From Candidatus Magasanikiibacteriota bacterium (GTDB lineage Bacteria; Patescibacteriota; Patescibacteriia; Magasanikbacterales; UBA922), in NCBI GenBank assembly GCA_049287025.1, contig JBAQFA010000005.1:1671-65670 (forward strand): a DNA stretch of 64,000 nt, given 5' to 3'. The position numbers and the translations under genes were made by a program. The notes beneath the pieces were generated by a model. That model saw nothing but the letters and a program-made list of their open reading frames with translations. It was not told the origin of the DNA and searched no databases. This document shows, one piece after another, positions 17,078 to 50,994 of this stretch. The stretch's first letter is position 1; each line of letters starts with the position of its first letter.

Positions 17078-17135
17078 GCTATTTTTTGCTAGACTATATT
17101 TATTCCTTATTCTTTAATCCTTATTCCTTTTTAAT

Positions 17136-34002: not shown

Positions 34003-35637
34003 TTAAGCCAGTTTTTTAATCATGTAAGTTTGTTGTAATTTGTATCCTAATTTTCGATAATAACCTCGCACTCCCACTCCGGAAATCACAGCAATTTTTT
34101 TATATTTATTTTTTTTACTAATTTTTTCAGCTTCTTCAACTAATTTTTTACCTAAACCTTTGTGTTGACTGGCAGATTTATTTTTTGTACCCAGTTCAAG
34201 TAGTTGTCCATAAGTGTGGAGTTCTCGTATATATGCTAACGAATTATCATCAAGAAGACGTAAACGTAAAAAACCATAAACAACCTGTCTTTTTTTATCT
34301 TCGTAACTCAAAAAATATTCTGTCCCACCTGTTGTTTCATATTTATCAATAAAAAGTCTTAAGTCTTCAGTTTTAAGTCTTAAGTCTGGCTGGTGTCCAA
34401 CCTCACGACAGCGTAAGCATTGGCATTCCAAACCCCTTTTGGCCATTTCTTTTTTAAGGTTTTGTCGGAGATTGGTAATCATGTTTCCACCCATAATTTC
34501 ATTGTCAGGAATATCACGAATTAAACGAGATATTCGGCAATAGCGTGGCGTACTGGTTTTCATTTCAATTAACGCTTCAAATAATTTTTTTTCTGAATAT
34601 GGTTTGTATTTTTTTTCTTTGTACCATTGATATAGGGCAGCAGTTTTTATCACTGTGCAGGGATAAATTTTTACCATATCAGGTTTAAAGCCTGGATCAG
34701 TAAATAATGACTTATACATTTCCACATCATGCTTGGCCGTAGTACCAGGGAGATCGGGCATAAAATGTAAATCAACTTTAAAACCAGCTTGACGTAACAA
34801 AGTCATAGCATCTTTAAATTGCTGTACAGTGTGTCCACGTCTGACTAATTTTAAAATTTTATCATCTGGTGCTTGCAGACCTAGTTCAATTCTAGTACAA
34901 CCCATTTGGCGCATGTGATTGATTGTCTCTGGGGTTATACAGTCGGGGCGGGTTTCTAAAGTTAGACCGATTATCTTGTGGCGGGCGTGACGGTCATTAT
35001 AACTTTGTTCTTTTTTTAAATTCCGAAGGAGCGAAGCGACTGAGGAATCGCTTTTTAATGCATTTGAAGAGACTTTGAAAAGGGATCTCTCACTTCGTTC
35101 GAGATTATTTGCCGCCCGGAAAGATTCTAAAATAAACCAATATTGATATTTTAGAGGATAAACATTCCACGATCCGCCTTTAATAATATATTCAATTTTG
35201 TCAGTCGGGTGGCCAGAAAGTTTTAGCATTTCTATACGTCTCACCATTTGCTCATAAGGATCAAAACATAGAGCCAAGGCTCTGGCAGCCGCTGGTTCGC
35301 TGGCCAAATAGCTTTTTGGCATTCTAGCCTCAGTCGGGCAATAAACGCATTTTCCAGGGCAATTATAGGGCTTACAGAGGGAGGTGACAACGGCTACACC
35401 AGAGAGAGTGCGTATATCAGCTTTACGCATGAATCGTTCTAAGGTTTTGTCCTGCTTGACTCTTTTCATTTTTAATAAATTTTGGTAAGCTTGTAGCAGG
35501 CTACGATTAGAAATTTGGTTGATGGAGAGTTTATTACAGACTTTTCTTCTGATATCATCAAACTCAGCCCTGGTAGTGGGTTGAAAGGAAATAATTTTTA
35601 ATATTATATTTTCTAGATTTTCCATAGATAGATACAC
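34003..35637 (-). CDS. elp3: Elp3-family radical SAM / GNAT protein (tRNA uridine-34 modification-type elongator protein 3 homolog)
   Basis: Radical SAM cluster CPGKCVYCP, a central SPL-like region and a C-terminal GNAT (KGLGKKLVEEAEK...GYYRKLGY). The likely start is the ATG at 35625. Carries an in-frame palindromic element at 35021-35105. Confidence 0.85.
   Translation of the reverse strand: MYLSMENLENIILKIISFQPTTRAEFDDIRRKVCNKLSINQISNRSLLQAYQNLLKMKRVKQDKTLERFMRKADIRTLSGVAVVTSLCKPYNCPGKCVYCPTEARMPKSYLASEPAAARALALCFDPYEQMVRRIEMLKLSGHPTDKIEYIIKGGSWNVYPLKYQYWFILESFRAANNLERSERSLFKVSSNALKSDSSVASLLRNLKKEQSYNDRHARHKIIGLTLETRPDCITPETINHMRQMGCTRIELGLQAPDDKILKLVRRGHTVQQFKDAMTLLRQAGFKVDLHFMPDLPGTTAKHDVEMYKSLFTDPGFKPDMVKIYPCTVIKTAALYQWYKEKKYKPYSEKKLFEALIEMKTSTPRYCRISRLIRDIPDNEIMGGNMITNLRQNLKKEMAKRGLECQCLRCREVGHQPDLRLKTEDLRLFIDKYETTGGTEYFLSYEDKKRQVVYGFLRLRLLDDNSLAYIRELHTYGQLLELGTKNKSASQHKGLGKKLVEEAEKISKKNKYKKIAVISGVGVRGYYRKLGYKLQQTYMIKKLA
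35021..35105. repeat. Palindromic miniature element copy (GAGGAATCG...GGGATCT variant) inserted in-frame in elp3
   Basis: TTCCGAAGGAGCGAAGCGACTGAGGAATCGCTTTTT ... AAAAGGGATCTCTCACTTCGTTCGAG. Encodes ERSERSLFKVSSNALKSDSSVASLLRN in the protein. Confidence 0.55.
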
Positions 35638-36552: not shown

Positions 36553-37461
36553 TTACATTCCTGTAATCAAACAAACAACATTACCAGTAAATTTATAGCC
36601 GTTTTCAACGGCTTTTTTTAATCCGGCAATTGATAAAGCTGAATTGGGTGAAATTGCTAGATGACAACCATCTTTACTCAATTCTATAGCTTCTTTTATA
36701 TCTTCGTTATCAACTATCCAACCAGAGCCCTGACTAGTTTCAACGGCTTTTATAACTTTTTCTTTACGAAAAGCAATGTTATCCACAATCGCGCCAGCTA
36801 GAGATTTTTCTGCTTTGGCATAAGGATGATTTTTTAGATAATCTGGTTGAAAATATTCGGCCATAGGGTGACAGGAATTGGTTTGGACAATATGAATTTG
36901 TGGTTTTTGGGTTAAAAATTCAGTTTGGAAGGCTTCGCCAAGAGCCTGAGCAGTGGTACCAGAAGAAGTGGGGACAAATATAGCTTGTAGATTGGGGATC
37001 TTATCTAGTTCTTGAGCTAGTTCAAAATAGCCGGTCAAAGCATTGTCATCAGTTGACTGTCTAAGCAACTTAGCTTTGTTGTCTTTGTTAACTTGAAAAG
37101 CAGTTTGTTTTGGTCGTTCTACTTGTTCTAGTTTTATATTAGCATCATCAATCACTGCCAAAAGAACTTTTAGTTTTTTGGGATCAATTTTTTTGCCAAT
37201 AAAAACTGTAAGTTTTAATTTACTAGGATTATTGCGGTTGTGAACTTGGATGGCGTTGATAGCAGCGAGAGCAGCATTTCCAGAAGAAGAAATGACAAAA
37301 TTTGTTATACCCTCTTCTTTGAAATATTTTTTTATCATTATTGGAATGGATCGGCCTTTGTGTGAACCATACTTGTGTTGATCTTCGCGTTTGAGAAAGA
37401 CATCACAGCTTAGCCCGAGTTTTTGGGCAATAGCTGAACAGGGGACTTGAATACTTTTCAT
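36553..37461 (-). CDS. PLP-dependent fold-type II enzyme (threonine synthase / cysteine synthase-like family)
   Basis: KREDQHKYGSHKGRS matches the PLP-lysine region K.E..NPTGSFKDR. Glycine-rich SSGNAA loop, 302 aa. Confidence 0.6.
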   Translation of the reverse strand: MKSIQVPCSAIAQKLGLSCDVFLKREDQHKYGSHKGRSIPIMIKKYFKEEGITNFVISSSGNAALAAINAIQVHNRNNPSKLKLTVFIGKKIDPKKLKVLLAVIDDANIKLEQVERPKQTAFQVNKDNKAKLLRQSTDDNALTGYFELAQELDKIPNLQAIFVPTSSGTTAQALGEAFQTEFLTQKPQIHIVQTNSCHPMAEYFQPDYLKNHPYAKAEKSLAGAIVDNIAFRKEKVIKAVETSQGSGWIVDNEDIKEAIELSKDGCHLAISPNSALSIAGLKKAVENGYKFTGNVVCLITGM

Positions 37462-37835: not shown

Positions 37836-37866
37836 AAATCCCCTTAGTAGGGGATTTTATTTTTTA
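37836..37866. terminator. Bidirectional rho-independent terminator
   Basis: AAATCCCCT-tagt-AGGGGATTT followed by a T-run, with an A-run upstream. Confidence 0.55.
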
Positions 37867-38417
37867 AATAATTTATTTTTAAATTTATCAAGTTTTTTGT
37901 CGATTACCATTTGGGCTACCTCTAGAGCAAAGCCTTTGTTGGTGAGAGATTTTTTGTCTAGAATAATTTTTATAAATTTTTCAAAACTAACAGCAATAGT
38001 TTTTATTTTTTCTCCGCGATCAAGATTTGGCTTTTGTGTTTTCTGACAATTTCTAGCTACATAGAGATATACAGTAAAATCCATTTTTTCTGGATACAGT
38101 TCTGAGGTATTTATTAATTCCCAATCTTTTGATTCAAGTCCTGATTCTTCTAATAATTCTCTTTTGGCGCACTGTAAAGGCGTTTCTCCTGGTTTATCCA
38201 TTCTACCACCAAAAGTTCCCAACGTCCTTTTGATGCCTGGTTGCTTTTCATTATTAAGAATAATTTTATTACCTTGCACAGCAATAATTCTGACTGCTCC
38301 TGGTCTTTTGATCATTTCAAAAGTAGTCAGTGATCCATCATACATTTTTTGTTGCCAATGATAGACGTCAAAGATTACTCCGGAAAAAACTTTTTTTGCT
38401 TGTTTGGGGATTTTCAT
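37857..38417 (-). CDS. NUDIX hydrolase (ADP-ribose pyrophosphatase-like)
   Basis: Nudix box GGRMDKPGETPLQCAKRELLEESGL, 186 aa. Confidence 0.8.
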   Translation of the reverse strand: MKIPKQAKKVFSGVIFDVYHWQQKMYDGSLTTFEMIKRPGAVRIIAVQGNKIILNNEKQPGIKRTLGTFGGRMDKPGETPLQCAKRELLEESGLESKDWELINTSELYPEKMDFTVYLYVARNCQKTQKPNLDRGEKIKTIAVSFEKFIKIILDKKSLTNKGFALEVAQMVIDKKLDKFKNKLFKK

Positions 38418-38421
38418 AGAT

Positions 38422-39348
38422 TTAATTTGGACAAGTAATTTTTGTTAATGACCAAGGATCTCTGACCAAACCTTTTAAATCAAATCCATTTACGTAATAA
38501 TTATCCGGAACAAAATAATAACAATTTTCTCGAGTCCATTCCCGACCATCGGTAGTATAATAGCGTAATAAATTTCCTTCGCCACTCCCAGCCCCGCGAT
38601 CGTCAGCCAAGTCAACAAAAAGTTTTTTGTCTTTTACAAACATGCCGACTGGGTTAAATTTTATCGTTGTGGTGTCAACCACTGTAGAAGCTTCCAAGAT
38701 TTGTTGCCAACGACCACGGCCAATTCTCGCCCAGATTCCACTTTGGGTGGAATTAGGAATGTTGTAATTCATATTACCTCTAAAGACTGGTAAAAAAGCC
38801 AAATTACTTAAATTTTCTTTTTCATCAAAAATATAAATACTCGGTTGATTATTTTGATTTTTGAAAATTATTTGATTATTATGAGTTCCAGGGGGCATTT
38901 TGTTTATTTGAGCATTAGCTAATATAGTTAACTCATAATTATTTTCTAACTCGCTCTTAATATAATTTTCTATTTGAGTTTGATAAGTATCTCTGTCTGG
39001 GGCAGATGGAAAATCATTTATTTCTCCATAAACTAAGCGACTATACAAACGCCATCTGACTACAGTTTTTACATCACAAATTGTGGCGACTTCGGCATAG
39101 GGAATACCAAAAATAGTGTAAGCGCGAGAAATTATTGTATCAGGGTAATAATCCGATCGGCCAATAGCTACAGTTTTTAAAATTAACATTCTTTCGATTG
39201 GATTATTTAGTGTGAAGTTGTTTTCTAGATTAGCACAGTTTATTTCTTTTTCAGTAAAAGCTTTACTATTTCTAACAAATAAAAATGGCACAATAATTCC
39301 AATGACTAAAATAATTAAAATGGCTAATAAAATTTTTTTGATTATCAT
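38422..39348 (-). CDS. Hypothetical secreted/membrane-anchored protein
   Basis: N-terminal signal-anchor ILLAILIILVIGIIVPFLF. No motif. 308 aa. Confidence 0.55.
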   Translation of the reverse strand: MIIKKILLAILIILVIGIIVPFLFVRNSKAFTEKEINCANLENNFTLNNPIERMLILKTVAIGRSDYYPDTIISRAYTIFGIPYAEVATICDVKTVVRWRLYSRLVYGEINDFPSAPDRDTYQTQIENYIKSELENNYELTILANAQINKMPPGTHNNQIIFKNQNNQPSIYIFDEKENLSNLAFLPVFRGNMNYNIPNSTQSGIWARIGRGRWQQILEASTVVDTTTIKFNPVGMFVKDKKLFVDLADDRGAGSGEGNLLRYYTTDGREWTRENCYYFVPDNYYVNGFDLKGLVRDPWSLTKITCPN

Positions 39349-39445: not shown

Positions 39446-40943
39446 AAGAATCAATCATTCCTCTAAAACCATGACTCCCACAGAAAACAATTACATCGCC
39501 AGATTTAGTGTTATTGATTAAATAATTTATTAATTCAGTATCATCATCAATATATTTGGCATTATTGTGGGTCTTACTAATTACCTCGGCTAGTTTTTGT
39601 CCGTCCATGACTTCTGGTTTATTGGGATCTTGTTTAATCGCTGTTAGACGAGGAATAATGACTTCGTCAGCACTGACAAAAGCATTGTCATAGCCAGGAA
39701 TAGATTCTATTTGGCGATTACCGCCGTTTGGTTCGAAGACTGCTATGAGTTTTGAGGAAGGGGATCCTTCGACTTCATTCGTTTGACTGGCGTCAAACTC
39801 ACTTCGCTCAGGATGACGTGTATAGATATTTTTTAAGCTAGCTAAAACCGCTTCAGCTTTTTTTGGTGAGTGAGCGATATCATCAAATACAATAACATCA
39901 TTATCACATCGTTTTTCCAATCTTCTTTTTATATTTTTAAAACTGATAATGGCTTTTATAATATTGGCTGGTTCAATACCAAGCTCATGAGCAAAAGCAA
40001 AACATCCAGTCATATTGTCGGCCATGTAGTCGCCTAGATTTGAAGTAATTAGGTTATAGGTTTTAGGTTTTAGGTTATCATTTTTTGGTTTGACAACTAT
40101 ATCAAATGATAGTCCGTTTTTTGAAGTTTTTACATTGGTGTACTGATAATCATTGTCTGGTGATTTTCCGTATTTAATGATATGTGATATGTGGTATGTG
40201 ATGTGTGATACTTTTTCACTAGTCACAATCATTCCATTAGCAGGAATGTTGTTTACAAGTGTTTGAAACGCATCAACATAAGATTGTTCAGTCGGATACA
40301 CATCAGCATGATCCCAAACCACAGATGTCAAAAGTAAATGAGTGGGGGAATAGTGGGCAAATTTTGGGCCATTGTCCCAGCGCGCGCTTTTGTATTCGTC
40401 GCCTTCAATTACGGAGTAATTGCCACGTGAACCCGAAGGGTTTTTACGTGGCGGATTGTCTCCCAAACTCGCAGACGGTATCCCATTTAGACTAATACCA
40501 CCAAACATATAAGTCGGATCAAAATTATTTTGTTTCAAAATCCAAGTAAGTAGTGATGAACTGGTAGTCTTACCATAAGTCCCAGCGCAAACAATTGAAT
40601 TCTCTTTGACAAAAAATTCTTTGATCACTTCAGGATAAGATTTATAATTTAATTTATTTTCTTGTACATAGAGCCATTCAGGATTATTGGAACTGGCGAC
40701 ATTGCCAACTACGACTAGGTTTCCATCTTTTCCTCCTTCGCTAAAGCTACGGAGGACACGGTCGGGATGCCAACCAGTATAATAATCAACGCCACTTTCT
40801 TTGAGATAAGTAGAAATGGGTGGATATATTCCCACATCACTACCAGTCACTTCATAACCCGCTTTTTTCAATGCTAAAGCCAGAGCCGACATGGCGACTC
40901 CACAGATACCGATGAAGTGGATTTTTATTTTGTCATGTAACAT
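39414..40943 (-). CDS. Mur ligase family protein, Mpl/MurC-like
   Basis: IHFIGICGVAMSALA and GSDVGIYPPISTYL (Mpl-like), with P-loop GTYGKTTSSSLL. Carries in-frame repeat insertions at 39752-39818, 40048-40079 and 40190-40230. Confidence 0.8.
   Translation of the reverse strand: MLHDKIKIHFIGICGVAMSALALALKKAGYEVTGSDVGIYPPISTYLKESGVDYYTGWHPDRVLRSFSEGGKDGNLVVVGNVASSNNPEWLYVQENKLNYKSYPEVIKEFFVKENSIVCAGTYGKTTSSSLLTWILKQNNFDPTYMFGGISLNGIPSASLGDNPPRKNPSGSRGNYSVIEGDEYKSARWDNGPKFAHYSPTHLLLTSVVWDHADVYPTEQSYVDAFQTLVNNIPANGMIVTSEKVSHITYHISHIIKYGKSPDNDYQYTNVKTSKNGLSFDIVVKPKNDNLKPKTYNLITSNLGDYMADNMTGCFAFAHELGIEPANIIKAIISFKNIKRRLEKRCDNDVIVFDDIAHSPKKAEAVLASLKNIYTRHPERSEFDASQTNEVEGSPSSKLIAVFEPNGGNRQIESIPGYDNAFVSADEVIIPRLTAIKQDPNKPEVMDGQKLAEVISKTHNNAKYIDDDTELINYLINNTKSGDVIVFCGSHGFRGMIDSLIKGLKSRKG
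39752..39818. repeat. Half-copy of the palindromic miniature element inserted in-frame in the Mur ligase gene
   Basis: GAGGAAGGGGATCCTTCGACTTCATTCGTTTGACTGGCGTCAAACTCACTTCGCTCAGGATGACG. Encodes ERSEFDASQTNEVEGSPSS. Confidence 0.5.
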
Positions 40944-40966: not shown

Positions 40967-41575
40967 TTATTTTTTTACAGCTAATTCTGTTTTAACATAA
41001 AAATATATTTCACCATTATTTATAGTTTCATCAGTTAAAATTTTTTTCATTTCTTCAAGATCATGTGTGCTTTTTATTTTATCATTTTTTTCTAATGTTA
41101 ATGATAGATATTTCCATCCAAAGATTTTATCTCCATTATTAATTGCCCATCTGGCCATTTTTATATTTTCAGTCCATATACTATAAGTGCATGGTAAATC
41201 AGATTTAGTCTGATGATGTGTCATTATTTCTTTGGCTGCCTTATAAAGTATTGTTGTTTCATCGGGCATCTTTTGAGGTGAACCCAAGTTTGAAATTACG
41301 TGTGTTTTAAATTCTCCTGGACGTTCTGGCAAGGTTGCAAGCGTTAAGAATAATATTTTATTACCATAGGTAATTTTCCACGCAAGATTATTTTCATCGG
41401 TTATGTCCGGAGTATTTTCCCAACCCCCAAAGACATCCTCTCCTTTTATCTGTTTATAAGCGTCGTGGAGTGCTTTATTCATTTGTCTGTGAGATACGGT
41501 TTCTGCTCGCGAAACAATCTCCCTAATGATTTCATCTTCAGTCATTTGTTCTGATTTTGGTCCTGTATCACTCAT
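40967..41575 (-). CDS. Hypothetical protein, paralog A of a two-member family (202 aa)
   Basis: Shares MxDTGPKxEQ..E[ED]EII, KILFL[TS], IYKAAKE[IL]M, PC.Y and A.W....G..IF blocks with 42106-42717. Confidence 0.6.
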   Translation of the reverse strand: MSDTGPKSEQMTEDEIIREIVSRAETVSHRQMNKALHDAYKQIKGEDVFGGWENTPDITDENNLAWKITYGNKILFLTLATLPERPGEFKTHVISNLGSPQKMPDETTILYKAAKEIMTHHQTKSDLPCTYSIWTENIKMARWAINNGDKIFGWKYLSLTLEKNDKIKSTHDLEEMKKILTDETINNGEIYFYVKTELAVKK

Positions 41576-41587
41576 ATTTTTTTAAAA

Positions 41588-42094
41588 TTATAACTCTTTA
41601 AAAATTCTTTTACCATTTTTTCCTTTACCATAGCAGAGTAATATTTTTTCTTTTTCATTATAATGGGCGGATAAAACTTTGCCAATAAAAATAGTATGAT
41701 CACCAGCTTTTATTTTTTTGATTACTTCACATTCATAATTCAGAGTCGCTTCAGCTAGCAGAGGAGTCTTTAGAAATTTAGCTTTGGTAGTTTTTATTTT
41801 TGATAATTTAAATTTATCAATTTTATCACCATGATTTTCGCCAAAGATTGAGATTGCTTTTAACTGTTTTTTGTTTGGTACAGCCAAGACAAATTCTTTA
41901 CTTTGTTCAATTAGTTTTTTGGTGTTTTGGGTATTGTAAATAGATACAGCCATTAGTGGCGGTTCGTGCGAAACTTTCGTGTGCCAAGCGACAATCATAC
42001 CGCTTGGTTTGTTATTTTTGTCACACGATAAAACAAAAGCAAAATTGTATGGGATGTATTTTGTAAAAGCAGTGGAAATGTCTATTTGTTTCAT
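41588..42094 (-). CDS. Flavin reductase-like domain protein (FMN-binding split barrel)
   Basis: PSGMIVAWHTKVSHEPPLMAVSI ... GDHTIFIGKV pattern typical of the PF01613 flavin reductase domain, 168 aa. Confidence 0.7.
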   Translation of the reverse strand: MKQIDISTAFTKYIPYNFAFVLSCDKNNKPSGMIVAWHTKVSHEPPLMAVSIYNTQNTKKLIEQSKEFVLAVPNKKQLKAISIFGENHGDKIDKFKLSKIKTTKAKFLKTPLLAEATLNYECEVIKKIKAGDHTIFIGKVLSAHYNEKEKILLCYGKGKNGKRIFKEL

Positions 42095-42105
42095 ATTTAA
42101 AAATT

Positions 42106-42717
42106 TTAAATATCTGTACTTAGGGCTACAGCCAGATTGGAGTTTTCAATTTCTTCAGGATTGTTTATCAGTAAATCCAGCAGTTCAGCTTCAGAGATAT
42201 CAGATTCAGGTTTATTAGTGCGACCAATTTTTGTAACAATTTTGCAATTAGGAAAGATTTCTTTGCCTTTTGTTAATAACCAAATTGCCATTCTTGGGTC
42301 AGCCGTGATTTCTGCATATTTACAGGGTTTTTTGAAGGTTTCTTCTTTATATCTAATCATTAATTCTTTTGCCGCCTTATATATTGGTGTTGTTTCTGGT
42401 ATTCTTTCCTCAGCAGAATTAAAATCCGAATTATTTACAATGTGAGTAAAAAAACTTCCAGTTCCTTTTTCGATTTCATGAAATGATAAAAAAAGTATCT
42501 TACCCCGGTAAGACAGTCTCCAATTAGGCGCTACTTCTTTATCGTCTGAGTCAACAAATGTTGTTGCTTCTTCATATTCTTCGCCATAAATTTCCATATA
42601 TAATTTATTCAGTTCTTCAATTTTTTGTTTTTTAGAAATTCTAACAGCCCCAGCAATAATCTCTGCAATAATTTCCTCTTCTGATCTTTGTTCTGGTTTT
42701 GGTCCTGTGTCGTTCAT
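42106..42717 (-). CDS. Hypothetical protein, paralog B of a two-member family (203 aa)
   Basis: Colinear conserved blocks with 40967-41575 (see paralog A). Confidence 0.6.
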   Translation of the reverse strand: MNDTGPKPEQRSEEEIIAEIIAGAVRISKKQKIEELNKLYMEIYGEEYEEATTFVDSDDKEVAPNWRLSYRGKILFLSFHEIEKGTGSFFTHIVNNSDFNSAEERIPETTPIYKAAKELMIRYKEETFKKPCKYAEITADPRMAIWLLTKGKEIFPNCKIVTKIGRTNKPESDISEAELLDLLINNPEEIENSNLAVALSTDI

Positions 42718-42718
42718 A

Positions 42719-43393
42719 TTATTTTAAAATATTTTTTAATTCATCCAAATCGTCATTCCATTTTTCACCATCAAACCACTCTAGTCCGGCAAATTGTAAT
42801 TTGTATTTTGCTTTAGTATCTTTGGCAGAGCCGAGATAGACGAAACGTTTGTGGTTTGCTTGAGCGTGTAATATTGTTTTCAACATCATTCCCATTCCCA
42901 AATTAGGTGTTAGGTTTTGGGTGTTAGGTGTTAGGTCGTAGAAAGGGTAGGAGTAGTGTAATATATTTTTGTCTTCATAACAAATTGCATAACCGATTTT
43001 TAAATTTTCGATTTTCAATTTACAATTTTCAAACGTGTAAATGAATAATTTATTAAAATTGTGACTGGTAGTTAAAATTTCTTTTACTTTGTTAGCACTA
43101 AAAGTACCTTCACCAAACTTTGTTTGATAAAAATCTTTGGCAAGTTTTCCAATTGTCCAATCGTAATCTGCCATTGGTAAGGAGTAAGGAGTAAGGAGTA
43201 AGGAGTCTGTTTTTTTTAAAATACGTTTATTTTCGCTTGTCAGTTTAAATCTGTCTAAATCAATGCGAATACTACGCGTCTGATATATGTCACCTTTGCC
43301 GGTGCGAGTAAACAAAAAGCCCTCGTTGTAAAGAGAGTTGATATTTTCGTCAGAGAAATCAGAAATTGTTTTTTCAGACCATTTTAGGTACAT
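42719..43393 (-). CDS. Arginyl/leucyl-tRNA-protein transferase family protein (ATE/Bpt C-terminal domain-like)
   Basis: KIGYAICYEDKNILHYSYPFYDL and KRFVYLGSAKDTKAKYKLQFAGLEWFDGEKW match the Bpt/ATE_C pattern (LxGY...YxFYDP; YLGYwI..C.KM.YK..F.P.E.L...W). The N-terminal Cys motif is absent. Contains in-frame tandem repeats (LTPN, LLLTPYSLP). Confidence 0.5.
   Translation of the reverse strand: MYLKWSEKTISDFSDENINSLYNEGFLFTRTGKGDIYQTRSIRIDLDRFKLTSENKRILKKTDSLLLTPYSLPMADYDWTIGKLAKDFYQTKFGEGTFSANKVKEILTTSHNFNKLFIYTFENCKLKIENLKIGYAICYEDKNILHYSYPFYDLTPNTQNLTPNLGMGMMLKTILHAQANHKRFVYLGSAKDTKAKYKLQFAGLEWFDGEKWNDDLDELKNILK
42901..42938. repeat. In-frame GGTGTTAG-type tandem repeat inside the ATE-like gene
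   Basis: aattaggtgttaggttttgggtgttaggtgttaggtcg encodes DLTPNTQNLTPNLG. Confidence 0.5.
43177..43206. repeat. In-frame 7-bp tandem repeat (taaggag x4) inside the ATE-like gene
   Basis: ggtaaggagtaaggagtaaggagtaaggag, read as LLLTPYSLP on the minus strand. Confidence 0.5.
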
Positions 43394-43399
43394 ATATAG

Positions 43400-43669
43400 T
43401 TATATCTGTTCATTGTATTCTTCTGAATGATAAAGTTTACGACTCCAAAGTGATGCAATTATAAAATGTACAATACAAAATAATAAAACAATTGGTAATT
43501 TTCCAAACATGGCTCCAGCACCGCTAATGAAGAAAAGTCCGGTTATAAAAGTAATTACAAAAGAAACCAACGGAATATATTTGCAGTATTTTTTATCTTT
43601 TTTTCTTAGTAGTATTCCAGTTGATATATAAATTATGAGTGGAAGTACTATAGTGATTATTTCTCCCAT
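43400..43669 (-). CDS. Hypothetical small membrane protein (89 aa, 3 TM)
   Basis: Three hydrophobic helices, compact ORF. Confidence 0.45.
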   Translation of the reverse strand: MGEIITIVLPLIIYISTGILLRKKDKKYCKYIPLVSFVITFITGLFFISGAGAMFGKLPIVLLFCIVHFIIASLWSRKLYHSEEYNEQI

Positions 43670-43739: not shown

Positions 43740-44861
43740 TTAGTAAAGCGCTATCCACAACCCCAAAAGCACTACAGCTGAATGTATAATCCAAAAACGC
43801 ATCACAGTTTTTTCTTCGCTCCAGCCGATTAATTCAAAATGGTGATGGAGTGGTGCCATTTTAAAAATTCTTCTACCTAAGACATGTCGACCAATGACTT
43901 GAATAATAACGGTAGCTAATTCCAAATAAAATATAAAAGCGATAAAGGGGAGTAAGATCATTTTATTTATTACAATGGCATTGATAGCTAATAAAGCCCC
44001 TAGACCCAAAGAACCAACATCACCCATTTGAAAACGAGCGGGCTTAACATTAAAGTATGTATAAGTAATCAAAGCTCCGACAGTCGTAGCATTTAACAAA
44101 GTAATTTCTGGATAATTATTGACCCAGCTCAAAATCGTTAAAGTAGAAAAAGTAATAATCAGTGATCCGCCAGCTAAACCATCCATACCATCGGCAATAT
44201 TAACAGCATTGGCGGTAAACATAACAAATAAAATAATTAAAGGAATGATCCACCAGCCAATATTAACTAGACCATCAAACGGAATATTAATTTGTTGCCA
44301 TTGTTCGCCCAATTTAAAATAAATCCAATAAGCAGTAATGGCACCGGCTGCGAATTGCAATAATAATTTTTCGTGGACATGTACGCCTTTGCCTGGGTGA
44401 GAACCAAGCCAGAGTGAAGCGCGTTTGAAAATTGACCAAGGTAGGGTAATAATTAGCCACATGCGTTGTTTCCAATCAGCATGAACTTTGATTAAAGTGA
44501 AAATTTGTTTTAGTTTGCGGTGACGTCTTTCGTGGCCATAAATATGCATAACATCGTCAATACCACCAAGGAGAGCAGACAACAACATCACACCAATTGG
44601 TACCCAAGTAAATTTTCTCTCCCAATTAAAAAGCATCGTAATAACAGCCACGGTAATGATTACCAAAAGACCACCCATAATTGGGGTGCCAGCTTTTTTA
44701 TCAATATTTAGAGTAGAATCATATTCTGCTCTACGGGTAAGCTTGAAATGGTAAAGAATTTTGGTCAAAATTGGCGACCAGAGAAATGCTACAACACAAG
44801 AACCCAAACCATAAAAAATGGCTGTTTTTAGCAGATTTAATGATTCAATTGGTATATTCAT
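43740..44861 (-). CDS. mraY: Phospho-N-acetylmuramoyl-pentapeptide transferase
   Basis: NAVNIADGMDGLAGG and MAPLHHHFELIGWSEEKTVMRFWII signature motifs, 373 aa, ten TM helices. Confidence 0.9.
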   Translation of the reverse strand: MNIPIESLNLLKTAIFYGLGSCVVAFLWSPILTKILYHFKLTRRAEYDSTLNIDKKAGTPIMGGLLVIITVAVITMLFNWERKFTWVPIGVMLLSALLGGIDDVMHIYGHERRHRKLKQIFTLIKVHADWKQRMWLIITLPWSIFKRASLWLGSHPGKGVHVHEKLLLQFAAGAITAYWIYFKLGEQWQQINIPFDGLVNIGWWIIPLIILFVMFTANAVNIADGMDGLAGGSLIITFSTLTILSWVNNYPEITLLNATTVGALITYTYFNVKPARFQMGDVGSLGLGALLAINAIVINKMILLPFIAFIFYLELATVIIQVIGRHVLGRRIFKMAPLHHHFELIGWSEEKTVMRFWIIHSAVVLLGLWIALY

Positions 44862-44954: not shown

Positions 44955-45950
44955 ATGAACAAGAGTAAAAACAAAATTTATATTTTTGATTATTCACCAG
45001 AAGCTTTGGTAGAAAAAGAAGTCAAGACCATAGAAGAGTGTATTACTTACAAAGAATCACCTTCGGTCACTTGGGTAAATATTGATAAAGTGCCACCAGT
45101 TGATGATTTGGAACGTTTGAAAAAAGTTTTTAGTATTCACCCAGTAGTAGTAGATGATATTTTAAATATTAATCAAAGACCAAAGATTGAAATTTTGGAT
45201 GATTATATCTATGTAGTTTTAAAAATGCTGACTCTGAATAATAGTAGTAAAAAAGTAGAAAGTGAACAGGTGAGTATAGTAATTGCCAAAGATTTTGTTT
45301 TGACTTTTCAACAGGATATTGAAGGTGATACGTTTGCGAGTGTGAGAGACAGAATAAGAAATAAAACAAATAAAATAAGAGGCATGGGTACAGATTATTT
45401 GGCTTATAAGTTAATTGATTCAGTCGTGGACAATTATTTTAATGTATTGGAAGATTTTTCTGATCGTTTAGAAAAAATTGAACACCAGTTGATTAATAAT
45501 CCTAATAATAGCACTTTACAGGAAATGTATAATTTGAAAAGAGAAGTAATAAATTTACGTCGTTCAGTCTGGCCTTTGCGTGAAGTGATTTCGGCTTTGG
45601 AGCGTGATGATACTGCTTTGGTAAAAGATAATACTAGGATTTATTTGCGCGATGTGTATGACCATGTAATACAAATTATTGATACCATAGAAACTTATCG
45701 GGAAATGTTGTCAGGTATGGTGGATATTTATTTGTCTAGTGTGAGTAATAAAATGAACGCGGTCATGAAAGTTCTCACAATTATTGCTACGATTTTTATG
45801 CCTCTTACTTTTTTGGCGGGTGTATATGGGATGAATTTTAAACATATGCCAGAATTGAATTGGGTGTGGGGTTATCCTATGACTTGGTTGGTCATGATCA
45901 TAATAACAATTATAATGTTAGTTTTTTTTAAGAGAAAGAAATGGCTGTAA
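44955..45950 (+). CDS. corA: Magnesium/cobalt transporter CorA
   Basis: GVYGMNF signature before the two C-terminal TM helices, 331 aa. Confidence 0.9.
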   Translation: MNKSKNKIYIFDYSPEALVEKEVKTIEECITYKESPSVTWVNIDKVPPVDDLERLKKVFSIHPVVVDDILNINQRPKIEILDDYIYVVLKMLTLNNSSKKVESEQVSIVIAKDFVLTFQQDIEGDTFASVRDRIRNKTNKIRGMGTDYLAYKLIDSVVDNYFNVLEDFSDRLEKIEHQLINNPNNSTLQEMYNLKREVINLRRSVWPLREVISALERDDTALVKDNTRIYLRDVYDHVIQIIDTIETYREMLSGMVDIYLSSVSNKMNAVMKVLTIIATIFMPLTFLAGVYGMNFKHMPELNWVWGYPMTWLVMIIITIIMLVFFKRKKWL

Positions 45951-46015
45951 ATTAAGCTCAAAATAAAAAATCCAAATGACAATTCAAATACAAAATTAAT
46001 TGAAAATTGTAAACT

Positions 46016-46885
46016 ATGGTTAAGGTTGCTTGGTTTGGTATACACACTGGTGAAGAACCGCCTTTAATCCCTGCTGGGGGGATTTTTTTTACTGGGTGTA
46101 ATTTGCGGTGTGTGTTTTGTCAGAATTATCAAATTTCTCAAGAAAATTTGGGAAAATTTTACAGTATAGAAGAATTAGCCAACATAATGCTTGATTTGCA
46201 AACCCAGGGTGCGGTGAATATTGATTTAGTGACGCCGACGATTTGGTGGAAGCAAATTAAACCGGCCATAATTTTGGCGCGTGAAAGGGGACTAACTCTA
46301 TCAATCGTTTGGAATTCAAATGGCTTTGATAGCTTAGAAATTTTACAGGAGATGAAAGGTTTGGTAGATATTTATTTACCAGATTTTAAATACAGTGATG
46401 ATGAAATTGCTTTTAAATATTCTGGTATAAAAAATTATGTTGAGACTACTAAATTAGCAATCAAAGAAATGTTGGATCAAGTTAATTATTTACAAATTGA
46501 AAATGGTATTGCGACTAGGCCCGCCCGCCACGCAAGCCAGCCCCGCCTATCACAGCCTGGCACTGGCGAGCAGGTTGCTGGCGTTGCGGGCAGGGGATTA
46601 ATTGTTCGTCATATGGTTTTGCCCAATAATTTGGCTAATAGTTTTGGTGTATTGCAAATGTTATCGGAGATCGATAATAAAATTCATGTTAGTCTCATGA
46701 ACCAATATTTTCCTATGCATCATGCGAATGAATATCCAGAAATAAATAGAATTGTGAGCGATGTTGAATTTAATCAAGTTTATGATTATTTGCAAGAACT
46801 TGGATTTACAAATGGCTGGGTACAGGGTGAAAAGAGTCAACAATTTTTAATTCCAGATTTTAGAAAAGAAGAGCCATTTAATTGA
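46016..46885 (+). CDS. Radical SAM protein (PflA-like / AmmeMemoRadiSam-type activating enzyme)
   Basis: GCNLRCVFCQNYQIS CxxxCxxC cluster in the PflA-like context. Carries a GC-rich in-frame insertion at 46516-46600. Confidence 0.7.
   Translation: MVKVAWFGIHTGEEPPLIPAGGIFFTGCNLRCVFCQNYQISQENLGKFYSIEELANIMLDLQTQGAVNIDLVTPTIWWKQIKPAIILARERGLTLSIVWNSNGFDSLEILQEMKGLVDIYLPDFKYSDDEIAFKYSGIKNYVETTKLAIKEMLDQVNYLQIENGIATRPARHASQPRLSQPGTGEQVAGVAGRGLIVRHMVLPNNLANSFGVLQMLSEIDNKIHVSLMNQYFPMHHANEYPEINRIVSDVEFNQVYDYLQELGFTNGWVQGEKSQQFLIPDFRKEEPFN
46516..46600. repeat. GC-rich inverted-repeat insertion, in-frame in the radical SAM gene
   Basis: GGCCCGCCCGCCACGCAAGCC ... GGCGTTGCGGGCAGGGG arms (GCCCGCCACGC / GCGTTGCGGGC). 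Encodes RPARHASQPRLSQPGTGEQVAGVAGRG. ~70% GC. Confidence 0.5.
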
Positions 46886-46892
46886 ATTTTTT

Positions 46893-48155
46893 ATGGAACA
46901 ATACGATGTCATAATTATTGGCGCGGGATTTTCTGGTCTTACTTTAGCTCATCATCTACCGCATGATTTGCGGGTTTTGGTTTTGGATAGAAAACAAGCC
47001 TTGAATAGTGTGATGGAAACTACTGGCTTAATCACCCAAGCGACAAAGGATCTAATTAGCGAATTTGTAGATATAGAAAATTATTTGCCCAATCATATTG
47101 ATACGATTGGTGTGGTGTCGCCAGATTATGATAAATATTTTTTTTCTCACACCACAGATCCTTGGATTTATTCGACTGACACACCAGAATTGGTAAAACA
47201 TTTAGCCGATGCAGTACCAAATAATGTAGACATAAAAATTGGTCAGACTCTAGTTGATTATAAGATTGATAATAGTTCTGAATATCCAGTTCTGGTAGAG
47301 TATGCAAATAATGGAACAAAAAGTTTATCCCAGACAAAATTTTTAGTGGGGGCAGATGGGGGTAATTCCACAGTGGCAAAATTAAATGATAAATTATCAA
47401 AAAATACTAAATTTTTAATTGGTTTTGAAAAAGTGTTTTTTGGCGATATAACTTTTGGTCCGAAGCCTAATAGTACAGTTTATCATTTTTGGTTTGGGGA
47501 ATTTTCACTTGGTTATGGCGGGTGGTTGTCGCCAACTGTGATTGATAATAAATCAGCTTTTCGGCTTGGTCTAGCTAAATTGGAAAAAGACAAGGCTAAT
47601 TTAAAAAAGCTGGATGATTTTATAAATATTTTACAGGAAAAAAAGATTATAAAAATTGATTCAGAAAATATTCAGCCAGTAATTTCTTTTGGTAATAAAA
47701 TTCCGATTGGCGGAGTTTTGCCAAATTTAACAGCTGACAGAGTAATGTTAATAGGGGATGCGGGTGGTTTTTGTGGAGCGTTTGCGGCCGATGGTATCAA
47801 GGGGGCAGTCTTGTCAGGAAAAACTAGCGCCAAATTAATCACAAAATATTTGCAAGGGGATAAAGATTGTTTAAAATCTTATATTTCAGAAATGCAAAAA
47901 AATAATAAAATTATTTATTATTACAGAAAACAATTACTTTATAGATGGTTATGGAATCTAATGAAAACTAATAATAGTTTTATGAATTTGTATCGATTGA
48001 TTGAAAGACAAAAAGATGATTTTCTTAATCAATTTTGTGATAGCAAGGACAAAAGAAAAAGTTTGTTTCGCGTGCTTTTAAAATTTAAAAACATACCTTT
48101 GTTATTTAGGTATGCTTTTTCATTGTTGTTTGATTTGTTTAGACCAAGGCCTTAA
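46893..48155 (+). CDS. FAD-dependent oxidoreductase (geranylgeranyl reductase-like family)
   Basis: YDVIIIGAGFSGLTLA dinucleotide-binding motif, GADG and GDAGG motifs, 420 aa. Confidence 0.8.
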   Translation: MEQYDVIIIGAGFSGLTLAHHLPHDLRVLVLDRKQALNSVMETTGLITQATKDLISEFVDIENYLPNHIDTIGVVSPDYDKYFFSHTTDPWIYSTDTPELVKHLADAVPNNVDIKIGQTLVDYKIDNSSEYPVLVEYANNGTKSLSQTKFLVGADGGNSTVAKLNDKLSKNTKFLIGFEKVFFGDITFGPKPNSTVYHFWFGEFSLGYGGWLSPTVIDNKSAFRLGLAKLEKDKANLKKLDDFINILQEKKIIKIDSENIQPVISFGNKIPIGGVLPNLTADRVMLIGDAGGFCGAFAADGIKGAVLSGKTSAKLITKYLQGDKDCLKSYISEMQKNNKIIYYYRKQLLYRWLWNLMKTNNSFMNLYRLIERQKDDFLNQFCDSKDKRKSLFRVLLKFKNIPLLFRYAFSLLFDLFRPRP

Positions 48156-49005
48156 GTCTTCTTATAAAAATTTCTTTAGCTTTCTTCGCATATTCCTGCA
48201 TTTGTGGTTCTGACCAGTTTTGTTCTAATAGATTTTTATTTGGATCAGTAATAGTGATTGTTTCTTGTCTCACGCCGTGGTTATAAAGACCATCAGTAGG
48301 ATATTGAAATGAATGGGTGTATTCAATCACAATTCCGAACCCCGAGGGTGAGGAATCCCTTTTTTGTGTATTAAAAGTTGTATTACTATTTACATTGTTT
48401 GAAGAGTTGGAAAGGGATCCACCCTTACGGGTATCTTCGACCTCGTTGCGACTCGGGATTACCGAAGAAACCAATAATACATGATTATAATCTTGTTTTG
48501 GACCAGCACCCATCATAACAATTAGATCTCCAGGCTGGATATCTTTTAGATTTATTTCTTTAGAATTTATATTATTATTAAAAGTGGAGACACCAGTATT
48601 TTCGGCTGATCTAAATTGAGAAATTAATTTGCGAATGGGATTTTTTATCCATGGCCGGTGAATATATTTTTTTAGTCCGCCTAAATTTCTGGCTTTCAAT
48701 TCTGTATCTAATACATGATAAATTAGACCAGAACAATCAATCCCTAGATTGTGTTCAATTAAAAATTTTTTTATTTGTTCGGCATTTAATTCGGCTAGTT
48801 TTATTTTTTCGCGTAAAGAAAAGATCGTGGCTTCTTCCGCAATATCTTCTGGGCTACCTTTGCCAATCAAGACGCGCAAAGCTCCACGAATATTTTTTCT
48901 CCGATTATTAAAATAGGGAGTAGTTATGTTTTTTTCTCCTATTTTGAGATTAAGGTATTGATCAATAACTTTTTGTGCTTGTGAGGATAATTGTTCCATT
49001 GTCAT
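48139..49005 (-). CDS. NlpC/P60-like (papain-fold C40 peptidase/amidase-like) cytoplasmic protein
   Basis: LGIDCSGLIYHVL resembles the catalytic Cys motif DCSGLV of C40 peptidases, with downstream His. No signal peptide. Carries the palindromic element at 48333-48468 in-frame. Confidence 0.5.
   Translation of the reverse strand: MTMEQLSSQAQKVIDQYLNLKIGEKNITTPYFNNRRKNIRGALRVLIGKGSPEDIAEEATIFSLREKIKLAELNAEQIKKFLIEHNLGIDCSGLIYHVLDTELKARNLGGLKKYIHRPWIKNPIRKLISQFRSAENTGVSTFNNNINSKEINLKDIQPGDLIVMMGAGPKQDYNHVLLVSSVIPSRNEVEDTRKGGSLSNSSNNVNSNTTFNTQKRDSSPSGFGIVIEYTHSFQYPTDGLYNHGVRQETITITDPNKNLLEQNWSEPQMQEYAKKAKEIFIRRLKALV
48333..48468. repeat. Palindromic miniature element copy inserted in-frame in the NlpC/P60-like gene
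   Basis: TTCCGAACCCCGAGGGTGAGGAATCCCTTTTTT-(AT-rich core)-GGAAAGGGATCCACCCTTACGGGTATCTTCGACCTCGTTGCGACTCGGGATTACCGAAG. Encodes GGSLSNSSNNVNSNTTFNTQKRDSSPSGFG. Confidence 0.65.
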
Positions 49006-49009
49006 ATTG

Positions 49010-50962
49010 TTATTTGTTTGATGTTTTATTCAAAATTTTTTCTGTCAGACCTTTTGGTAATAATGTTATGTTTGGCAATTCTTTTAGATCTACCCAGACT
49101 AGCTTGTAAGAATTATTAGTAGTGCTTCTCTCTCTTTCTTCGTCACCTAGCTTTGGTTCACCAGAAATATTCTCCGCAAAATAATAATATTCGTCACGGC
49201 CATTAATATTAAAACAAAGTGGTATTTGTTCAGGAATAGTAAAATCAAGATCAGTTTCTTCTTTGCCTTCACGTTTGGCTGTGGCTAATATATTTTCATC
49301 AAAATCTTCTTTGGTTCCACCAGGTGGAGTGAAAAAATGCTGGGAAAATTTTTGTCTTTCTATTAATAAAATTTTGCCGTCTTTAATAGGTAAAATAGCA
49401 CCTCGGGGCAAGTCCCAACCCACACCTTTTTGGGTGACAGTAATAAAGTCAATTATTTTTAAACCATTGAGACTTAATTTATTATGCGCTTCCATAATAG
49501 GATAAAGAGTTTGCGTGCGCATCAGGTCAGCATTTGGTTTGGTATTATTGTATTTTATAATATTGAAATCAGGTCGTTTGTTGTATTTTGGTTCGTGAAG
49601 TGAAGGAATTTCTTTGGTAACTCGTTGAATAATTTGCGCGCCATCTTGGATTTTGATTAATGTTTGATTTTCCAAATTTATATCTAATAACGCCATGAGG
49701 TGGGATTCGAATGTGGTTATTTGGTTTGTCATCCCGAATCCCCCGACGAAGGGGGTGAGGGATCCCTTGTCTTTGGATTTAAACATTGTATTATTACTAA
49801 TTCCATTGTTTAATGTTTGGGAAAGGGATCCCCTCCTCGGAGGATCTTCGACCTCGCCCTGTGTCGGGCTCGGGATGACAAGTGATTGAAGTTGTGATTC
49901 GTAAGTCGTTGATGCTGGTTGTCTGGCATTAATTTCAATTAAATATAGTTTGCCATTTTTTCCCGCCTTCGCTGAAGCTTCGGCGGACAAGTCATCAACC
50001 ACAACATCAACTCCAAACAAACCTTTCCAACCTTGTGATCTTAATTTTTCGCCAATATCATTTACAATTTTGTTGTATTGTTTTATTTGATCTTCATTTA
50101 AATATTTATTAGCAAATGACCAATCATTGCCAATGGTAGTAAATTTATTATCAGTAAAAGGTTTGAGTCCAGTAATTTGATAGCTAATATTACCAACTAA
50201 AATTTTATTTTTTGTGACGACATTGTTGCTAGTAAACATTGGTCCAGAAATATATTCCGTGATTCTAACTGGGCGATCGGGAAATTTTTCTTTAATCTCA
50301 TCCAGCTGACTCTCTGATTCAATCAAAATAGTGCCAAGGCCAGTATGAGCGCGGTTGAATTGGATAATAAAAGGCTTACAAAGCTCACGAGGCTTGCTAC
50401 CTGCCTGCGCAGGCAGGGGCTCACAAGGCCAAACGATATTTTTACATAAATCAACTCTGTGTTTAGGTAAATATTTTTGTAATTCCCCAAGCCATTCTAG
50501 TCCAGAGATTTTTTCTTCTATTTTGTTTGACAGTTCGGCTGGTGGGTTGAGTAGTTTCCAATTATTTTCCTGACAGATTTTTTCTATTTGAGTGGTGGGT
50601 TTGAAGACTACCACGGTAAGTTCATTCCGATCCGCCGATGAGGTGGAGAGGAATCTTTCGGAGTTATTTGTTGTTGTGGTATGATTGTCTTTTGTAATTT
50701 GTTTGTAAAAGGCTTCGAAAGATCCCTCGTCAGTCAGTCGTCTGACTTCCTCGGGATGAACCAACAATTCTAACAATTCCCAAGTATCCAGCTGTTCATT
50801 ACTTTCAATCAAAAGGACATTATCATATCCTTCAGCTACAGACTTGGCAAAAGGCGTAGAATTTGAGATAATATGATAACCTGGGGTATTTAAATTCAGC
50901 CCTAAAGCCCGCTCAATATCGCGGGTGACGTAAATGATTGGGTTTTGGGTTAGATCTATCAT
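49010..50962 (-). CDS. ATP-grasp (RimK-like) ligase fused to a C-terminal NUDIX hydrolase domain
   Basis: ATP-grasp blocks PFIIQFNRAHTGLGTILI and GLFGVDVVVDD...GKLYLIEINARQPAS. C-terminal Nudix box GGTKEDFDENILATAKREGKEETDL. The likely start is MIDLTQNP at 50962, since the track ORF to 51049 overlaps the divergent gene. Carries three in-frame palindromic insertions. Confidence 0.7.
   Translation of the reverse strand: MIDLTQNPIIYVTRDIERALGLNLNTPGYHIISNSTPFAKSVAEGYDNVLLIESNEQLDTWELLELLVHPEEVRRLTDEGSFEAFYKQITKDNHTTTTNNSERFLSTSSADRNELTVVVFKPTTQIEKICQENNWKLLNPPAELSNKIEEKISGLEWLGELQKYLPKHRVDLCKNIVWPCEPLPAQAGSKPRELCKPFIIQFNRAHTGLGTILIESESQLDEIKEKFPDRPVRITEYISGPMFTSNNVVTKNKILVGNISYQITGLKPFTDNKFTTIGNDWSFANKYLNEDQIKQYNKIVNDIGEKLRSQGWKGLFGVDVVVDDLSAEASAKAGKNGKLYLIEINARQPASTTYESQLQSLVIPSPTQGEVEDPPRRGSLSQTLNNGISNNTMFKSKDKGSLTPFVGGFGMTNQITTFESHLMALLDINLENQTLIKIQDGAQIIQRVTKEIPSLHEPKYNKRPDFNIIKYNNTKPNADLMRTQTLYPIMEAHNKLSLNGLKIIDFITVTQKGVGWDLPRGAILPIKDGKILLIERQKFSQHFFTPPGGTKEDFDENILATAKREGKEETDLDFTIPEQIPLCFNINGRDEYYYFAENISGEPKLGDEERERSTTNNSYKLVWVDLKELPNITLLPKGLTEKILNKTSNK
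49728..49879. repeat. Palindromic miniature element, best-preserved copy with perfect 10-bp outer inverted repeats, in-frame in the ATP-grasp-NUDIX gene
   Basis: GTCATCCCGAATCCCCCGACGAAGGGGGTGAGGGATCCC-(AT-rich core)-GGGAAAGGGATCCCCTCCTCGGAGGATCTTCGACCTCGCCCTGTGTCGGGCTCGGGATGAC. Encodes EVEDPPRRGSLSQTLNNGISNNTMFKSKDKGSLTPFVGGFG. Confidence 0.7.
50388..50440. repeat. Short GC palindrome (CCTGCCTGC|GCAGGCAGG) inserted in-frame in the ATP-grasp-NUDIX gene
   Basis: GCTCACGAGGCTTGCTACCTGCCTGCGCAGGCAGGGGCTCACAAGGCC. Encodes LPAQAGSKPREL. The core is shared with the 35658-35680 palindrome. Confidence 0.5.
50626..50758. repeat. Palindromic miniature element copy inserted in-frame near the 5' end of the ATP-grasp-NUDIX gene
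   Basis: TCCGATCCGCCGATGAGGTGGAGAGGAATCTTTCGG-(AT-rich core)-CGAAAGATCCCTCGTCAGTCAGTCGTCTGACTTCCTCGGGATGAA. Confidence 0.6.
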
Positions 50963-50994
50963 AGTGAGGGTAATTATACTTAAAAAAATAGTTT

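Follow-up and report, generated by a model that had tools for sequence, protein, structure and literature searches.

What is an aminoacyl-tRNA transferase that resembles protein-modifying enzymes of the ATE/Bpt type doing among the peptidoglycan genes of a bacterium of the Patescibacteria? The question is raised by a run of four genes in the genome of a Candidatus Magasanikiibacteriota bacterium (assembly GCA_049287025.1, contig JBAQFA010000005.1), of which we analysed a stretch of 64 kb, hereafter the window, to whose positions the coordinates of its features refer. The run comprises an ATE/Bpt-like transferase ("ATEL"), two paralogous proteins that we call A and B, and a flavin reductase-like protein. 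An initial annotation, made from the letters alone, had tentatively read the four genes as a functional module in which the transferase acts together with dedicated substrates or adaptors and a redox partner; the mraY and murC/mpl-like genes that flank the run were not noticed in it. Here we describe the transferase as a compact member of the ATE/Bpt clade within the aminoacyl-tRNA transferase superfamily, that is, an enzyme of a known kind, found unexpectedly, and throughout a lineage, among genes for the cell wall. We tentatively propose that it aminoacylates a peptidoglycan precursor in the manner of the Fem enzymes, with GNAT-like proteins encoded beside it as optional tailoring partners.

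An ATE/Bpt-type transferase among cell-wall genes

The only Pfam family matched by this protein of 224 residues was ATE_C (PF04377), at 17.3 bits against a gathering cut-off of 25 (E 0.0078); the same family was matched at E<0.01 by 19 of 26 relatives of the transferase, the best of them with an E of 3e-8. NCBIfam arginyltransferase (Bpt) models aligned with residues 40-214 and gave at best 39.1 bits (E 4.9e-10), far short of their cut-offs of 170-358 bits. No ATE_N domain was matched in the transferase or in the 26 relatives, no Cys occurs in its residues 1-123, and no Cys is invariant among the relatives, which bears out the initial observation that the N-terminal Cys cluster is missing. In the Ate1 of Kluyveromyces lactis (klAte1), this Zn/Fe-S site of ATE_N is formed by C23, C26, C95 and C96 (PMC9351520).

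An AlphaFold (AF2) model of the transferase, built on the 26-sequence alignment, has a mean predicted local distance difference test score (pLDDT) of 94.6 and consists of one GNAT lobe plus a small N-terminal part. Its top Foldseek match was human ATE1 (8tzv; E 1e-8, TMq 0.68), with the yeast and K. lactis ATE1 structures at a TMq of 0.63-0.67. These were followed in the ranking by MprF/aaPGS, Weissella FemX, the streptothricin enzymes Sba18 and Sbb17, and then by leucyl/phenylalanyl-tRNA-protein (L/F) transferase (2cxa; E 2.9e-5, TMq 0.45), all top solved-structure matches being aminoacyl-tRNA-dependent transferases. The FemX structures, at an E of ~1e-6 and a TMq of ~0.5, are related at the level of the superfamily. 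Such solved-structure relatives were linked by fold comparison alone, a search of the chains in the Protein Data Bank (PDB) with the transferase sequence and its family profile having returned no ATE, Fem or LFT match. With ATE_C as its sole, sub-threshold Pfam match, Bpt matches that stay below their cut-offs and ATE1 as its closest fold, the first gene of the run is well described as ATE/Bpt-like, as it had been named initially.

Set beside the known systems, the transferase has most in common with Bpt and ATE1, which combine ATE_N (PF04376) with ATE_C. These are its best matches in both sequence and structure, and it shares with them the ATE_C-type GNAT fold, the motifs 'YSYPFYD', 'YLGS' and 'YK..F', and a Tyr-Lys pair, its length being near the ~240 residues of Bpt. 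It differs from them in the missing Cys/Zn cluster, in scores that remain far under all curated cut-offs, and in a genomic place between mraY and murC that offers no N-degron context. Escherichia coli L/F-transferase (Aat; ~230 residues) belongs to the same superfamily and is similar in size, but the transferase fits ATE1 far better, has no sequence match to Aat and lies in no clpS/infA-type context. FemX, FemA, FemB and MurM, for their part, share the superfamily, have a catalytic Lys that corresponds to that of the transferase, are likewise associated with peptidoglycan genes, and are the functional analogue that we propose. They are built from two GNAT domains and a coiled coil, whereas the transferase has a single GNAT lobe and is ~100-200 residues shorter, and the residue before the catalytic Lys is Phe in FemX and Tyr in the transferase.

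This Tyr-Lys pair, Y197-K198, is invariant in the 26 relatives as part of a 'YLG...YK..F' motif. By motif alignment rather than superposition, it would correspond to Y303-K304 of klAte1, both of which are essential, and to F304-K305 of FemX (PMC9351520). The family alignment furthermore contains eight invariant Arg or Lys residues, a number compatible with the binding of tRNA; R57 and K61, on a helix that forms part of a basic surface, are invariant. Homologs of the transferase number more than 1,100 in Patescibacteria, and a protein identical to it is annotated in a metagenome-assembled genome of Candidatus Magasanikiibacteriota.

At the positions of the Arg pocket of Ate1 (around F151/Y152, M169, T173 and V185), located by motif spacing and not by superposition, the residues appear to be non-acidic, which makes the transferase unlikely to be an R-transferase; these pocket positions seem to resemble those of Bpt more than those of Ate1. 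A minimal Bpt-type enzyme of an N-degron pathway would transfer Leu or another destabilising residue onto proteins with an N-terminal Asp or Glu and so mark them for Clp-dependent degradation, and a frozen gene order would then explain why its gene adjoins mraY. That the closest sequence models are Bpt arginyltransferase and ATE_C, and the closest structures ATE1, speaks for such an enzyme, as may the invariant Arg30 in 'FTRTG', which aligns by eye with the 'GFRRSG' region of klAte1 that holds R80, the Arg for acidic acceptors. We consider it the main rival of our proposal, but an unlikely one all the same, since its equivalog models score 39 bits where 170-358 are needed and since the Cys/Zn cluster of ATE_N, which shapes the acceptor cleft, is absent. 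Were it correct, the gene would encode a divergent N-degron enzyme at an unusual genomic address.

The gene neighbourhood bears on the same choice. We compared 80 species-representative loci and several metagenome loci, counting 84 related loci. The mraY gene lies directly upstream of the transferase gene in 82 of the 84, and a MurC-like ligase lies downstream of it, with or without other genes in between, in 78, the remainder being contig ends. The order of mraY, transferase and murC/mpl-like ligase, all on one strand, is thus invariant across the lineage. The spacing between mraY and the transferase is at most 30 bp in 35 of the 80 loci; gaps of more than 250 bp separate mraY from the transferase in 17 of the 80 and the transferase from murC in 32 of 76, and the trio is never separated or inverted. 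Among the 56 loci with enough upstream sequence, 50 have a divergent murB, an ATP-grasp ligase (in many cases a fusion with NUDIX) and an NlpC/P60-like gene upstream of the trio, and 41 show the order murB (minus), ATP-grasp, NlpC/P60-like, mraY, transferase, murC, which several more keep with inserts. The ATP-grasp ligase beside murB and mraY may form another peptide bond in wall synthesis. Literature searches returned no description of an ATE-like gene in cell-wall clusters of the Candidate Phyla Radiation (CPR), nor of this arrangement.

An N-degron role is further disfavoured by the absence of clpS, clpA and aat genes from the window and from within 10 kb at the 84 loci, in line with the initial remark that the context is not that of ClpS-aat. 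Also against it is the close packing of the transferase gene with mraY and murC on one strand, which persists despite many insertions. Many of the metagenome-assembled genomes that carry this cluster, typical of Magasanikbacteria, are labelled 'uncultured Gammaproteobacteria bacterium' (e.g. L011, L014 and L015), which looks like mislabelling.

A variable slot and its paralogous proteins

Between the transferase and murC lies a variable slot, whose genes differ from genome to genome; roughly half of the loci have none there. Its cargo includes canonical GNATs (L003, its repeat L004, and the closely similar L027), RimK/LysX-type ATP-grasp ligases in four loci (L052, L061, L071 and L081), a Ddl-like ATP-grasp ligase, an LPG_synthase_C domain, i.e. 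a second aminoacyl-tRNA transferase domain, together with an M20 peptidase (L075), methyltransferases, an MBL hydrolase, a pentapeptide-repeat protein and many proteins of no named family. In general, these contents lean towards amino-acid and peptide chemistry. Genes for 23S rRNA intervening-sequence proteins (23S-IVP/bAvd-like) in the slots of three genomes (L013, 10800-11177; L042, 821-1189; L045, 10840-11064; positions within those loci) indicate that the slot also takes selfish or unrelated cargo. Upstream of the transferase, the space that follows mraY forms another slot, smaller than the first, which is occupied in other genomes by unrelated small open reading frames with one to three transmembrane segments.

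Some of this cargo could point to a different acceptor, either another envelope component, such as a membrane lipid or a polyprenyl-linked glycan modified in the manner of aaPGS/MprF, or a small peptide metabolite made tRNA-dependently in the manner of Sbb17/Sba18. The LPG_synthase_C gene in the slot of L075, the small membrane proteins often found between mraY and the transferase, and the presence of MprF/aaPGS and Sba18/Sbb17 among the top structural matches would all agree with an acceptor of this kind. We judge it improbable: the transferase lacks both a membrane domain and a partner flippase, it does not lie within a biosynthetic gene cluster, and its conserved neighbours are core enzymes of peptidoglycan synthesis.

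In the window, the slot holds the three remaining genes of the run. The four genes are indeed tightly packed on one strand, the minus strand, with gaps of 1, 11 and 12 bp from the transferase through paralog B and the flavin reductase to paralog A. The flavin reductase-like FMN-binding protein was also identified correctly at the outset; it matches PF01613 at 118.1 bits (gathering cut-off 27) over 143 of 153 profile positions, and reaches no NCBIfam equivalog cut-off. Among the 84 related loci it recurs in one only, L005, the closest relative of the window, with 93% identity, and is a lineage-specific passenger common to these two. Members of the paralog family, for their part, are present in only 3 of the 80 loci that represent species. 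The proposed module of four genes, redox partner included, is therefore not supported; what does emerge from the comparison of co-occurrence is that a paralog, wherever the locus can be read, always sits in the slot between transferase and murC.

Aligned along 196 residues, the two paralogs show 34% identity (E 1e-30) and share the motifs by which their relationship had first been recognised. Searches of Pfam, NCBIfam and PADLOC returned no match for either, in agreement with their initial placement outside any annotated family, and Pfam gave no consistent match across their relatives. A defence-system or phage origin of the four genes and of two orphan neighbours was considered and rejected, PADLOC and PHROGs having given a single insignificant PHROG match, to a paralog. 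How many relatives are seen varies with the search: a word-indexed search with paralog A gave one foreign match and a six-sequence profile four, a metagenome scan with a narrow alignment gave three near-identical loci only, and an exhaustive profile search brought the number to 373 representatives, of which 141 have an E below 1e-10 and most are 140-175 residues long.

A member of this family lies directly between the transferase and murC in every informative locus (the window, L005, L021, L084/L093, L086, L087, L088/L089, L091, L092 and L094), and none was found outside the slot within 10 kb at the loci examined; this makes a real link between transferase and paralog plausible. A single copy is the rule, two copies being found in the window only. 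Relative to L005 (10306-12055 there), the paralog is conserved at 35% identity and the transferase at 74%, compared with 88% for MraY, 93% for the flavin reductase, 84% for MurC, 90% for the 308-residue protein that follows MurC, and 98% for the LysW-like protein beyond it. Divergence within the operon thus peaks at the paralog and, less strongly, at the transferase, and a hypervariable, GNAT-like slot family at 35% identity between flanks at 84-93% points to diversifying selection on wall chemistry.

The constant company of transferase and paralog also bears on the initial proposal itself, in which the four genes would be a dedicated system and the paralogs the substrates or adaptors that the transferase aminoacylates, with the flavin reductase as redox partner. 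Besides the tight packing of the genes and the position of the paralog family beside the transferase, it could draw on the acidic N-terminus of the paralogs, which, once trimmed, would resemble an acceptor of ATE/Bpt enzymes. Many members share a predicted-disordered segment M-x-[DE]-x-G-P-x-x-E-Q, position 3 being acidic in 56 of 150; exposing the N-terminal Asp or Glu would, however, call for a processing step. Moreover, the flavin reductase occurs in one of 84 related loci, two copies of the paralog occur nowhere but in the window, and the transferase is universal where paralogs are rare (3 of 80), so that the transferase must have another substrate. We thus give a dedicated four-gene system little credence, a dedicated substrate being conceivable for the transferase-paralog pair only.

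What the paralogs themselves may be is suggested by their predicted structure. The AF2 model of paralog A (pLDDT 81, predicted TM-score 0.79) has the topology a-a-b-b-b-a-b-a-b-b, which can be assigned as the a1-a2-b2-b3-b4-a3-b5-a4-b6-b7 of GNAT N-acyltransferases, and nearly all of its top matches in a Foldseek search of the PDB are GNATs (SACOL1063, SpeG and Naa50), with weak scores (E 1.7e-3 or worse, target-normalised TM-score ~0.5). Structure prediction, to which the initial annotation had looked for an answer, has in this way yielded a GNAT-like topology together with weak scores and no support from profiles: none of 67 family members matches a GNAT model, and hhalign gave a probability of 0.1 between the paralog family and a canonical GNAT of the same slot. 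The acyl-CoA loop Q/R-x-x-G-x-G/A expected between b4 and a3 is absent, the family consensus there being P-x-E-T-T-x-L-Y-K-A-A-K with no Gly-rich loop, and the corresponding residues 97-104 of paralog A are modelled with low confidence. The closer members of the family, unlike GNATs, also bear additional N- and C-terminal extensions. The paralogs are, on this model, probably a degenerate GNAT-like fold, the assignment being a weak one. A further candidate, that they are a detached second lobe homologous to the transferase, was dropped, as profile-profile comparison found no relation between the two families.

The proposed reaction and its acceptor

In the reaction that we favour, aminoacyl-tRNA would be bound by the basic surface of the transferase, including the R57/K61 helix, and Tyr197-Lys198 would stabilise the tetrahedral intermediate as the amino acid is moved onto a peptidoglycan precursor (UDP-MurNAc-peptide, lipid I or lipid II). 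The acceptor there would be a free amino group, and the stem peptide would become branched or extended. The donor, judging from the spacing of motifs, is probably a small or hydrophobic amino acid and not Arg. In the minority of genomes that have one, the fast-evolving and probably GNAT-like slot protein might further tailor or redirect the reaction. An ATE-clade transferase would thus have been recruited to a role in the cell wall, and the slot beside it would gather optional genes for peptide tailoring.

Several observations count against this proposal. The peptidoglycan acceptor is one that we infer from the neighbourhood alone, and for this reason our confidence in a Fem-like aminoacylation of a peptidoglycan precursor stays somewhat short of even. 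The donor amino acid and any role of the paralogs are inferred as well; what is shown is the order of the genes, how the slot behaves, the superfamily with its fold, and the conservation of the catalytic Tyr-Lys dyad. Neighbourhood is itself weaker evidence than the trio suggests, because synteny extends over more than 20 kb and takes in genes without an obvious role in the wall, namely those for a LysW-like zinc ribbon, a threonine-synthase-like pyridoxal phosphate (PLP) enzyme, a methyltransferase and an ELP3-like radical-SAM enzyme; this wider block, with its unrelated genes, is at the same time a point for the Bpt-type N-degron enzyme discussed above. In sequence, the transferase is nearer to the protein-modifying ATE/Bpt enzymes than to Fem, FemAB (PF02388) being matched neither by it nor by its 26 relatives, and in its small size it equals L/F-transferase, an enzyme that acts on proteins. 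Neither the window nor 52 loci revealed a dedicated or recurrent tRNA gene close to the cluster. Finally, the GNAT assignment of the slot proteins is itself weak, with its poor Foldseek E values, its lack of profile similarity and its missing acyl-CoA loop.

To our knowledge, the only enzymes known to tailor the cell wall in a tRNA-dependent way are those of the FemXAB/MurM type in Gram-positive bacteria, and ATE/Bpt-type enzymes are known only as modifiers of protein N-termini. If our proposal is true, the aminoacyl-tRNA transferase superfamily was recruited to the cell wall a second, independent time, and across a lineage of the CPR; it would, in addition, provide the first concrete handle on the wall chemistry of the uncultured, ultra-small Magasanikbacteria.

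A bolder version, which we regard as very improbable, would have part of the stem peptide itself built tRNA-dependently. The murD gene follows mraY in the canonical dcw cluster, and it is the transferase that holds this position here. An ATE-type enzyme that keeps the ancestral preference for acceptors with an acidic N-terminal residue could join L-Ala or a similar amino acid to the alpha-amine of a Glu-containing peptide supplied by the neighbouring ATP-grasp ligase, and a Mpl-like ligase would then put the finished peptide onto UDP-MurNAc. Mpl is a ligase that loads preformed peptides, and the ligase adjoining the slot scores marginally better as Mpl (TIGR01081, 231.7 bits, cut-off 388.7) than as MurC (TIGR01082, 223.6 bits, cut-off 335.1), a difference that does not distinguish the two. 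A search by tblastn with the MurC-like protein, a weak test of local scope, found no second Mur ligase within 10 kb. Were this version true, Magasanikbacteria would possess a partly tRNA-dependent route to the peptidoglycan stem.

Layout of the locus and tandem arrays

The features of the window are collected in Table 1. The tight run begins with mraY, whose score against TIGR00445 (187 bits) is just below the cut-off of 192, and extends through the orphan gene, which has no Pfam or NCBIfam match, to the two genes of its tail, which are set off by 65 and 4 bp. A single strong hairpin resembling a terminator was found in this minus-strand run, 3' of the NUDIX gene; the scan for promoters and terminators was otherwise uninformative in this AT-rich DNA.

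Table 1. Features of the 64-kb window at and around the transferase locus, in order of position.
Feature	Position	Strand	Evidence and remarks
Leucyl-tRNA synthetase, 1257 aa	9257-13030	+	carries an insertion (see text)
Period-7 array	17100-17129		short array in a coding region
Period-7 array	34354-34387		short array in a coding region
Threonine-synthase-like PLP enzyme	36553-37461	-	just downstream of cluster
LysW-like zinc ribbon, 54 aa	37608-37772	+	just downstream of cluster
Terminator-like hairpin	37836-37857		3' of NUDIX
308-aa protein with N-terminal membrane anchor, then NUDIX hydrolase (PF00293)	37857-39348	-	tail of run
MurC/Mpl-family Mur ligase, 509 aa	39414-40943	-	all three Mur ligase Pfam domains
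Period-7 array	40178-40210		short array in a coding region
Paralog A, 202 aa	40967-41575	-	slot family, as paralog B
Flavin reductase-like FMN-binding protein, 168 aa	41588-42094	-	PF01613
Paralog B, 203 aa	42106-42717	-	slot-family member; P0125 in family profile search
ATE/Bpt-like aminoacyl-tRNA transferase (ATEL), 224 aa	42719-43393	-	ATE_C-type GNAT fold, reduced N-terminal part
7-bp array x4.9, 85% matches	42903-42936		Tandem Repeats Finder (TRF); residues 153-164 (DLTPNTQNLTPN) of transferase; loop of variable length in family alignment
7-bp array x5, 82% matches	42998-43032		TRF; residues 121-132 (FENCKLKIENLK) of transferase; insertion hot-spot of family alignment
GTAAGGA x4.3, perfect 7-bp array	43177-43206		TRF; residues 63-73 (DSLLLTPYSLP) of transferase; poorly conserved alignment segment
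Orphan 89-aa protein, two predicted transmembrane segments	43400-43669	-	hydropathy; between mraY and transferase
mraY (phospho-MurNAc-pentapeptide transferase)	43740-44861	-	PF00953, 95.6 bits; first gene of tight run
CorA, radical-SAM activase-like protein, geranylgeranyl-reductase-like FAD enzyme	44955-48155	+	between NlpC/P60-like gene and mraY
NlpC/P60-like gene	48139-49005	-	Pfam match, weak
ATP-grasp + NUDIX fusion	49010-51049	-	Pfam match
murB	53256-54200	+	Pfam match

Upstream of mraY, the plus-strand insert with CorA interrupts a block that most relatives keep contiguous. Downstream of the cluster, the LysW-like zinc ribbon and the threonine-synthase-like PLP enzyme are retained in ~70 of the 84 loci, and this pair, taken together with the RimK/LysX ATP-grasp genes in four of the slots, hints at an amino-group carrier protein system.

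The transferase gene itself contains short tandem arrays, which the initial annotation had described as two in-frame microsatellites. Such arrays are present; they number three and have a period of 7 bp, which is not a multiple of 3. They coincide with the three least conserved segments of the transferase alignment, and half of the six period-7 arrays in the window fall inside this gene of 675 bp. The reading frame is kept across them because of their total length only, and as gaining or losing a single unit would alter it, phase variation is conceivable. Another possibility is that the arrays mark the way in which variable loops lengthen in this lineage. The other three show that short arrays in coding regions recur in this genome.

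Farther away in the window, the leucyl-tRNA synthetase has an insertion of ~370 residues that twice matches models of the alpha/beta-hydrolase type (Abhydrolase_1 over residues 468-561 and Ser_hydrolase over 665-835), placed between the editing domain and the remaining catalytic core, an architecture unusual for this enzyme.

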